A stretch of 64,000 nt of DNA from Escherichia coli O127:H6 str. E2348/69 (GTDB lineage Bacteria; Pseudomonadota; Gammaproteobacteria; Enterobacterales; Enterobacteriaceae): assembly GCF_000026545.1 (NCBI RefSeq), contig NC_011601.1; one strand, given 5' to 3'. Position numbers: made by a program. Positions 22,301-25,300 of this stretch are shown one piece after another (position 1 is the first letter of the stretch; each line of letters begins with the position of its first letter).

Positions 22301-25300
22301 CCTCTTTAAAGGCGATTTACATGCTGGTGAGATTGGCCCGGTTCGGGTAAATGGTCGCTGGGACGGTATTCGTCTGCGCGGTAACGCCTGGTGGCCTAAA
22401 CAATCACTGACTGTATTCCAGCCGTTGGTGCCACCCGACTGGAAGATGAACTTACGCGATGGTGAACTGTATGCTCAGGTCGCATTTTCAGCAGCGCCCG
22501 AACAAGGATTCCGCGCGGGAGGACACGGCGTGTTGAAAGGCGGTAGTGCCTGGATGCCAGATAATCAGGTTAACGGTGTCGATTTTGTCCTGCCTTTCCG
22601 TTTTGCCGATGGAGCCTGGCATCTGGGGACTCGCGGTCCCGTTACGTTGCGAATTGCCGAAGTGATTAATCTGGTGACAGCGAAAAATATTACGGCTGAT
22701 TTGCAAGGTCGTTATCCGTGGACTGAAGAAGAACCATTGCTGTTGACTGATGTTAGTGTCGATGTGTTAGGCGGTAACGTGCTGATGAAACAATTACGTA
22801 TGCCGCAACATGACCCGGCGCTGTTGCGGCTGAATAATCTTTCCTCCAGCGAACTGGTTAGCGCCGTCAATCCGAAACAATTCGCCATGTCCGGGGCATT
22901 TAGTGGTGCATTGCCGTTATGGCTAAACAACGAAAAATGGATAGTGAAAGACGGCTGGCTGGCAAATAGCGGGCCGATGACCTTGCGGCTGGATAAAGAC
23001 ACCGCAGATGCGGTGGTGAAAGACAATATGACCGCGGGTTCAGCAATTAACTGGTTGCGCTATATGGAAATTAGCCGTTCATCGACAAAAATTAATTTAG
23101 ATAATCTCGGTTTATTAACCATGCAGGCCAACATTACAGGTACCAGTCGCGTTGATGGTAAAAGCGGTACGGTAAATCTTAATTACCATCATGAAGAGAA
23201 TATTTTTACGCTGTGGCGCAGTTTACGCTTTGGCGATAATCTCCAGGCATGGCTGGAGCAGAACGCGCGTCTGCCGGGAAATGACTGTCCGCAAGGAAAA
23301 GAGTGTGAGGATAAACAATGAAAATTTTACTGGCTGCGTTGACGTCATCTTTTATGCTGGTTGGCTGTACGCCTCGCATTGAAGTCGCTGCACCTAAGGA
23401 ACCGATCACTATCAATATGAACGTTAAAATTGAGCATGAGATCATCATCAAGGCAGACAAAGACGTCGAAGAGCTGCTTGAGACCCGTAGCGATCTTTTT
23501 TGAGGTGATGATGAAAAGAACATTACTTCTTTGTGCATTTCTTGTTGGCTTGGTAAGCAGCAATGTAATGGCATTGACTCTGGATGAAGCCAGAACTCAG
23601 GGGCGAGTAGGCGAAACATTTTATGGTTATCTGGTTGCGCTGAAAACAGATGCTGAAACTGAGAAATTAGTAACCGACATTAATGCCGAACGTAAAGCGA
23701 GCTATCAACAACTGGCAAAGCAAAATAATGTGTCGGTAGATGATATCGCGAAACTCGCCGGGCAAAAGCTTGTAGAACGGGCCAAACCCGGGGAATATGT
23801 ACAAGGGATAAACGGTAAATGGGTGCGAAAATTTTAATAGCAAAACCGCAATATCGGGATAACGCTACAGGAGAAGACGATTAATCTATTTTCCGGAAAT
23901 AAGATGATTATTCAAAAATTCCTGCCAAATTGCCTTTTGCCCTGAAAAATGCATAATCAAATATCTGTTTTAACTAATTCGCGTTGCTGTACATGCAACG
24001 CGAATTAGTTAGCGGAATTTACGCCGATTCTCGCCTGGCGTCATCCCAAAGCGTTGTTTAAATACCGTTGAAAAATGACTCTGGTCGGAAAATCCCCAAT
24101 GAAAGCCAATGCCTGCCAGTTTTTCATCATCTGCGGCATGGCGAATCGCATCTGCACAAAAATCGAGACGACGGTTACGAATATATTGCGCGACCACCAA
24201 ACCTTTATCGGCAAACTTTATCAGCGCGTAGCGCCTGCTGCTGTAGCGTTCGTTAGTGAAAAAGATGAAACCTCGGTCGGTGAGCTGCCTTCGCCGGGTA
24301 GCCTGTATTTTCAACGTTTTGGCGGTTTGAATATTGAACAGGAGGTGTTAAGCCAATTTATCAGATAGACGGTCTGACTCCGATAGTAACAGAAGAGAGT
24401 TTTGTTCATCCGACAGAGGTATTGATCGGCGATGTTATTCTCGGCAAGGGCGTTTACGTTGGACCAAATGCCAGCCTGCGAGGTGATTTTAGTCGTATCG
24501 TGGAGAAAGATGGCGCGAACATTCAGGATAATTGCGTTATGCACGGCTTTCCCGGGCAGGATACTGTCGTTGAAGAAGATGGGCATATTGGTCATAGCGC
24601 TATCCTTCACGGCTGCAATATCCGCCGCAATGCATTAGTGGGAATGAACGCGGTAGTGATGGTCGGTGCGGTGATTGGTGAGAACAGTATTGTTGGCGCA
24701 TCCGCATTTGTGAAAGCCAAAGCAGAAATGCCTGCTAATTATCTGATTGTCAGCAGCCCGGCAAAAGCGATTCGTGAACTTAGTGAGCAGGAGCTGGCAT
24801 GGAAAAAGCAGGGCACGCATGAGTATCAGGTGCTGGTGACACGTTGTAAGCAGACGTTGCATCAAGTCGAGCCATTGCGGGAAGTTGAACCTGGCAGGCA
24901 GCGTCTGGTATTTGATGAGAATCTGCGACCGAAACAGTCACGTCCAGATGCTGAACGTTCTAATTTTTAGCATGTGATACCTTAACCGCAACGCTGATAC
25001 AGGTTGCGGTTTTTTATTGCCGGATGCGGTACTTGACGCGTTTTGTTTTGGTGTCTTTCAGGATATTAGAGCTACTCATCCAGTAATCTTGTTTACGCCT
25101 TCGCATTATTTATCTCTATTCATTTCTATACTGATTTTTCTTAATCCGTTTTATTACAGGGCAGGGTGCGATGAGCAGCAACACATTTACTCTCGGTACA
25201 AAATCCGTTAACCGTCTTGGTTATGGCGCGATGCAACTGGCAGGTCCTGGGGTTTTTGGCCCCCCAAGAGATCGCCACGTCGCTATAACCGTGCTGCGCG

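Follow-up and report, generated by a model that had tools for sequence, protein, structure and literature searches.

The locus between ydbL and pdxI

We analysed a 64-kb stretch of the genome of enteropathogenic Escherichia coli O127:H6 E2348/69, referred to below as the window. In RefSeq, the order of genes at the locus is ydbH, ynbE, ydbL, a helix-turn-helix (HTH) pseudogene, a PaaX pseudogene, paaY, pdxI, an ISEc13 transposase, azoR and hrpA. The first pseudogene (24009-24215, minus strand) is listed as a "helix-turn-helix domain-containing protein" and the second (24216-24368, plus strand) as "PaaX", each with its N-terminus missing. The paaY coding sequence is called intact by PGAP (24356-24970, start ATT at 24356) and is assigned a 204-aa protein, WP_029694377.1. 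The features that we place at the locus, with the basis for each in brackets, are as follows.

23511-23837, plus strand: ydbL, the last intact gene on the left of the scar (RefSeq annotation of E2348/69 and ORF list)
23964-24016, strand-neutral: putative terminator hairpin between the convergent 3' ends of ydbL and feaR (folding energy)
24009-24216, minus strand: feaR 3' fragment, FeaR residues 234-301 plus the stop, AraC-type HTH (BLASTP, Pfam, K-12 collinearity)
24216/24217, no strand: deletion junction, equivalent to K-12 1446585/1464338 (local alignments and a base-by-base view)
24216-24368, plus strand: paaX 3' fragment, PaaX residues 267-316, stop TAG at 24366-24368 (BLASTP)
24340-24344, plus strand: Shine-Dalgarno sequence (SD) of paaY, GGAGG, kept (sequence and K-12 alignment)
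24350-24352, plus strand: former start codon of paaY, ATG changed to AAG by T>A at 24351 (alignment with K-12 and five further genomes)
24350-24970, plus strand: paaY-derived frame of 206 codons, with TAA changed to TCA at 24938-24940 and a new stop, TAG, at 24968-24970

The original prediction was of a deletion scar that had removed the phenylethylamine and phenylacetate pathways and left paaY an orphan, and alignment to K-12 MG1655 supported it. Collinearity with K-12 runs from ydbH into feaR and stops at 24216 (K-12 1446585); it resumes at 24217 (K-12 1464338) inside paaX. Identity to K-12 is 97% over 3.6 kb in the left flank and 94% over 725 bp in the right flank, a match that, judged from the alignments, is not due to chance. 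The DNA missing at the scar is K-12 1446586-1464337, which is 17,752 bp and not the roughly 20 kb first estimated. This block holds the feaR promoter and the 5' two thirds of feaR, feaB, tynA, paaZ, paaA-K, and the first 266 codons of paaX with all DNA upstream of them. As had been predicted, none of feaB, tynA, paaZ and paaA-K was found anywhere in the 64-kb window.

It had also been proposed that ydbL is followed by only the HTH-encoding end of feaR, and this was borne out. A 101-aa ORF on the minus strand (24009-24314) matches FeaR 234-301 over its residues 34-101, with 67 of the 68 positions identical (BLASTP, K-12), and Pfam returned HTH_18 at 51.6 bits (1e-13) and HTH_AraC at 42.3 bits. 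The assignment of this ORF to feaR stands for its C-terminal two thirds and fails for the remainder, as its first 32-33 codons are the antisense of the surviving paaX tail and feaR DNA ends at 24216. Read this way, the ORF is a chimera, and its FeaR origin is limited to the last 68 residues. The C-terminal AraC-type double HTH is present; the full length of 301 aa, the promoter and the targets feaB and tynA are not. On these features the feaR remnant, 68 codons without the promoter and the N-terminal 233 codons, classifies as a pseudogene fragment and not as a FeaR, the AraC-family activator of tynA and feaB.

Similarly, paaX was not wholly lost, as had been supposed. Its remnant spans 153 bp, and 44 of its 50 codons encode residues identical to PaaX 267-316 (BLASTP). 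The remnant overlaps the paaY start by 19 bp, the same as in K-12, and gave no match in a Pfam search. It falls short of the full-length 316-aa PaaX with the N-terminal winged helix of this GntR-type repressor of paa. The joint is feaR'/paaX', not feaR'/paaY as first described, and 134 bp of paaX, instead of about 40 bp, lie between the feaR remnant and paaY.

At the breakpoints K-12 reads GGCAAAC/ATTCGG and TCAACA/TTTATC, and the window reads GGCAAAC/TTTATC, with a few shared bases at most. A search of the 150 bp to each side of the two K-12 breakpoints found no shared words of 9 bp or more; the longest word common to the two was 8 bp and lay away from the joint. We also saw no insertion sequence (IS) end at 24216/24217. 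Because the flanks are collinear, the joint is single and clean, and no long repeat or mobile element sits at the breakpoints, we read the deletion as illegitimate (non-homologous) recombination.

The same difference from K-12 would arise if K-12-like strains had gained the feaR-paa block and E2348/69 represented the empty site. Such a gain would fit the distribution of paaA, which is present in 3,146 of 5,426 complete E. coli genomes (58%) and absent from 42%, and it would fit the site in O157:H7, where no feaR or paaY remnants lie. An empty site would not be expected, however, to hold interior fragments of feaR and paaX, which here are 99% and 88% identical to K-12 at the amino acid level. 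Because of these truncated remnants the event is a loss here and not a gain in K-12; they rule out an insertion in K-12, to which we assign a negligible probability.

The IS4-family element ISEc13 lies 1.8 kb downstream (26062-27611) and is a candidate for having caused the deletion. However, A25, DCE7 and Rb-50 carry the junction without the IS, and ISEc13, at its site between pdxI and azoR, is flanked by a target duplication of its own, with no IS end at the joint. ISEc13 is ruled out as the cause of the feaR'/paaX' junction, and we consider such an origin extremely improbable.

We made several further observations on the neighborhood. ISEc13 is 1,550 bp long, with ends CTGTCTCTTGATCAGATCT and (reverse-complemented) CTGTCTCTTATACACAAATCC, which presumably resemble IS50/Tn5 ends. 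It is bracketed by duplicated CACTTTCGTG inside a hairpin between pdxI and azoR, and the site is empty in A25, DCE7 and Rb-50. Between paaY and pdxI (24941-24954) the window lacks the 8.9-kb ynbG-ydbA segment, which in K-12 includes IS2 and IS30. Because paa-positive genomes, ETEC1701 among them, commonly have paaY next to pdxI as well, this absence is a separate and widespread polymorphism. The genes ydbD and ynbABCD, which separate pdxI from azoR in K-12, are not present here (26037-27640) or in A25, DCE7 and Rb-50, where the pdxI-azoR gap is about 40 bp; within 4 kb, this is the third difference in gene content relative to K-12. Finally, pdxI (25171-26037) is divergent, with a dS of 0.24-0.30 against the other strains examined, an altered C-terminus and a length of 288 aa compared with 286 aa in K-12. 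This divergence suggests that the pdxI allele may have been imported from a distant Escherichia lineage.

Transcription and coding state of the orphan paaY

The hairpin between ydbL and feaR has a 17-bp stem and a predicted folding energy of -30.9 kcal/mol (z = -6.8 relative to shuffled sequences). Within 23971-24011 one stem pair differs from K-12 on both sides, with C/G at 23980 matched by G/C at 24002, and pairing is kept. Because both sides of the pair have changed, the stem appears to be conserved under constraint. The hairpin is likely a bidirectional terminator that would separate ydbL transcription from the orphan paaY. In the intact system the paaXY operon is driven by Px upstream of paaX (PMC9493321), and the DNA where Px sits is deleted here. 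A consensus scan for promoters and terminators over 23700-25200 returned no more sites than shuffled sequence, none of them able to drive paaY, and it found no promoter-like site between the hairpin and paaY. Taken together, we infer that paaY would be untranscribed in E2348/69.

The start codon of paaY had been predicted to read AAG in place of ATG behind a retained GGAGG, and both points were correct. Alignment to K-12 showed that the native start is ATG, which excludes a natively non-ATG start. ATG is also found in ETEC1701, which is paa-positive and has the same paaY-pdxI arrangement, and in the scar carriers Rb-50, VCSW5 and APEC O2-211. We then searched with a 37-base query centred on AAG; an exact 28-base word was required, so genomes with ATG were unable to match. 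The AAG-bearing 37-mer matched five of the 5,426 complete E. coli genomes, namely three assemblies of E2348/69, the monkey isolate A25 and the pig isolate DCE7, and this count implies ATG in about 250 further scar-bearing genomes. The PaaY sequences of DCE7 and A25 are identical. Because ATG occurs in the other genomes examined and AAG in these five only, the change reads as derived, recent and rare.

The native stop of paaY is also lost, by TAA to TCA with an extension of 10 codons, in E2348/69, A25 and Rb-50. Within these three genomes, with derived states polarised by four outgroups, the variable sites of paaY comprise 6 nonsynonymous and 2 synonymous changes, compared with 7 and 16 in the adjacent pdxI (Fisher p = 0.043). 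Pairwise omega was 0.9-1.5 for paaY and 0.07-0.18 for pdxI; counts are small, and pairwise versions of the substitution test gave p = 0.07-0.09. Three replacements hit conserved residues, shared by K-12 PaaY and its homologues of solved structure PDB 8gpm and 1v3w: E2348/69 carries A23E and D105V, and Rb-50 carries H65P.

The product of the frame is 94% identical to K-12 PaaY and scores 358.2 bits with TIGR02287, the NCBIfam equivalog model for PaaY, a hexapeptide-repeat thioesterase, compared with 377.8 bits for K-12 and a cut-off of 319.6, so it passes. What it lacks as a PaaY gene is a canonical start behind the SD, the native stop, placement in the paa cluster and co-transcription with paaX from Px. 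The ATT that RefSeq uses at 24356 sits 11 nt after GGAGG. The next canonical in-frame start, TTG at 24422, has AGAGG 2 nt upstream and would drop 24 N-terminal residues. SD spacings of 11 nt and 2 nt are both poor. Translation in E. coli starts at AUU rarely and weakly, and low-level initiation from it is possible.

An alternative is that the orphan paaY still works, through weak translation from ATT 24356 or TTG 24422, in a role outside the paa pathway, for instance as a general acyl-CoA thioesterase. The open frame of 206 codons, the score above the model cut-off and the PGAP call of an intact gene would all agree with a working paaY, as would the orphan copies in VCSW5 and APEC O2-211, which keep ATG and normal length. 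Yet in E2348/69 the native start, stop and promoter are all gone, omega is about 1 in its subclade, and conserved residues have been struck. The C>A change at 24417 does create AGAGG directly upstream of TTG 24422, but both this site and that before ATT are badly spaced, and the TTG product would be shortened. The known breadth of the enzyme, which takes a wide range of CoA-ester substrates in E. coli (review PMC9493321), would make room for another role. Weighing these points, we consider a working paaY quite unlikely.

We conclude that the paaY of E2348/69 is most likely a decaying pseudogene, and that the 'intact' RefSeq PaaY with the ATT start is probably an over-call. It is plausible that the orphan gene is untranslated, as the original prediction had allowed. 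The only known role of PaaY is to hydrolyse a dead-end CoA intermediate that inhibits PaaZ (PMC9493321), a role that became pointless because the deletion took both catabolic pathways. Decay would have begun with loss of the stop, which is common to Rb-50, and continued with the change of ATG to AAG, which is common to A25 and DCE7; replacements of conserved residues would also have built up in the drifting gene. Such decay is not universal, because the three other scar carriers examined keep ATG, two of them at normal length.

Separately, we observed an uneven substitution pattern on the E2348/69 branch (with or without A25). Over 24217-24970, five of the seven derived substitutions are A:T>T:A (24351, 24385, 24504, 24618 and 24663), compared with one of 25 in 5.2 kb of flanks; the difference (Fisher p = 0.0006) was spotted post hoc and concerns few sites. 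The five nonsynonymous changes on this branch (M1K, A23E, V52E, I90N and D105V) all lie at codon position 2 and comprise four of the A:T>T:A changes and C>A at 24417. The excess may have arisen by chance, through a mutational process local to this region or through selection to inactivate the gene.

Distribution of the scar and independent losses

It had been suggested that related genomes be checked for the same scar. A 46-bp probe across the feaR'/paaX' junction was found in 258 of 5,426 complete genomes, the same number as a 1.3-kb query (1,321 bp, 23850-25170) that had to be covered to at least 80% in one place. Carriers came from humans, poultry (avian-pathogenic strains included), pigs, dogs, wild birds and water. 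A25, VCSW5 and APEC O2-211 share the junction to the base, and Rb-50 has a single C>T at 24216. We also considered that the joint could stem from misassembly or be a lesion that E2348/69 acquired as a laboratory strain. It is present in three independent E2348/69 assemblies, which are 100% identical over 23850-25170, and in 255 other genomes; the 258 carriers rule out either explanation, to which we give next to no weight.

The flanks are mosaic among carriers, and carriers differ from one another in paaY by as much (dS 0.12-0.16) as they differ from non-carriers. Both features would fit an old event with later recombination in the flanks.

A second scar, feaR'/paaY', was detected with a 50-bp probe in 564 of the 5,426 genomes. 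The strains R7, C9 and O25b:H4-ST131 4993, which carry it, likewise lack the feaR-paa block and likewise keep a feaR HTH stub beside ydbL. Its breakpoints are K-12 1446629/1464721, with a 4-bp overlap. It keeps 252 bp of feaR, 44 bp more than the E2348/69 scar. Nothing is left of paaX, and paaY is reduced to its final 329 bp, after which the sequence runs on into ydbA. Because each scar keeps sequence missing from the other, the two are independent, and derivation of the E2348/69 type from the ST131 type, or the reverse, is ruled out. Subtraction leaves about 1,460 paa-less genomes with neither scar.

These results bear on whether loss of feaR, tynA, feaB and paa has been recurrent and selected, with the orphan paaY then actively silenced. 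The block was deleted independently at least twice, the two scars differing by 44 bp at the left breakpoint and by 383 bp at the right, and O157:H7 shows a third arrangement, a replacement. Lineages that have lost the block include EPEC, ST131-type, avian-pathogenic and EHEC strains. Active silencing, if true, could explain the excess of second-position T>A changes from hydrophobic to charged residues on the E2348/69 branch. We regard this scenario of selected loss and silencing as speculative and unlikely.

Taken together, our preferred reading is of a single old deletion, followed by drift of the orphan paaY in the E2348/69 sublineage without pathway or promoter, and we hold it with high confidence. 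One illegitimate-recombination event would have fused the last third of feaR to the last sixth of paaX and removed Px, the promoter of the paaXY operon, in the same step. The leftovers, namely a promoterless feaR HTH stub, the paaX tail and paaY, would be inert. Directly observed are the junction and its spread among genomes, together with the altered start and stop codons and the substitution pattern. E2348/69 is predicted to be unable to turn 2-phenylethylamine or tyramine into phenylacetate (TynA, FeaB) or to degrade phenylacetate (Paa).

Comparison with published surveys, K-12 and O157:H7

Absence of these pathways from pathogenic E. coli has been reported before. In the tynA PCR data of Elovaara et al. 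(2015, PMC4640556), the gene was detected in 17% of EPEC, 7% of UPEC, 0% of NMEC and 0% of O157:H7 isolates, and CFT073 is described there as lacking a 33-kb area around tynA. In the strain panel of Leimbach et al. (2017, PMC5422975), phylogroups B2 and E were each represented by one genome, and both of these are described as lacking paa. The portions of these two papers that concern tynA and paa do not give the junction, the remnants or the paaY state of E2348/69. Our search for literature on E2348 together with paaY found none, and a search on E2348 and phenylacetic deletion returned only a metabolic-model paper that is silent on the locus. Because of the RefSeq pseudogene calls and the published absence of tynA and paa, the deletion was already known in kind and substance. 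Our analysis adds the precise position of the junction, a corrected anatomy, the finding that AAG is rare, evidence that the RefSeq PaaY is probably dead, and the independent second scar.

The scar itself is ordinary, and the value of the analysis lies mainly in correct annotation. It accounts for the expected non-use of phenylethylamine, tyramine and phenylacetate in E2348/69 and in about 5% of sequenced E. coli. That paa has been lost through at least three different lesions may be of modest help to work on how pathogenic E. coli lose metabolic genes.

Compared with the K-12 cluster feaR-feaB-tynA-paaZ-paaABCDEFGHIJK-paaXY (b1384-b1400), E2348/69 shares the ydbH-ynbE-ydbL-feaR flank, the paaX/paaY overlap and the SD. 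It differs in that feaR and paaX are truncated and that in paaY the start ATG reads AAG and the stop reads TCA. O157:H7, like E2348/69, has no feaB, tynA or paa between ydbL and pdxI, in agreement with the O157:H7 isolates in the PCR survey (PMC4640556). In contrast to E2348/69, the O157:H7 site (F8492, L010 18670-19410) holds no feaR or paaY remnants; the 3' end of ydbL is 77% identical to K-12 and is followed by unrelated AT-rich DNA and then by two ydbA-like genes. On this arrangement the O157:H7 site reads as a replacement, a third route to the paa-less state that is distinct from the E2348/69 scar.
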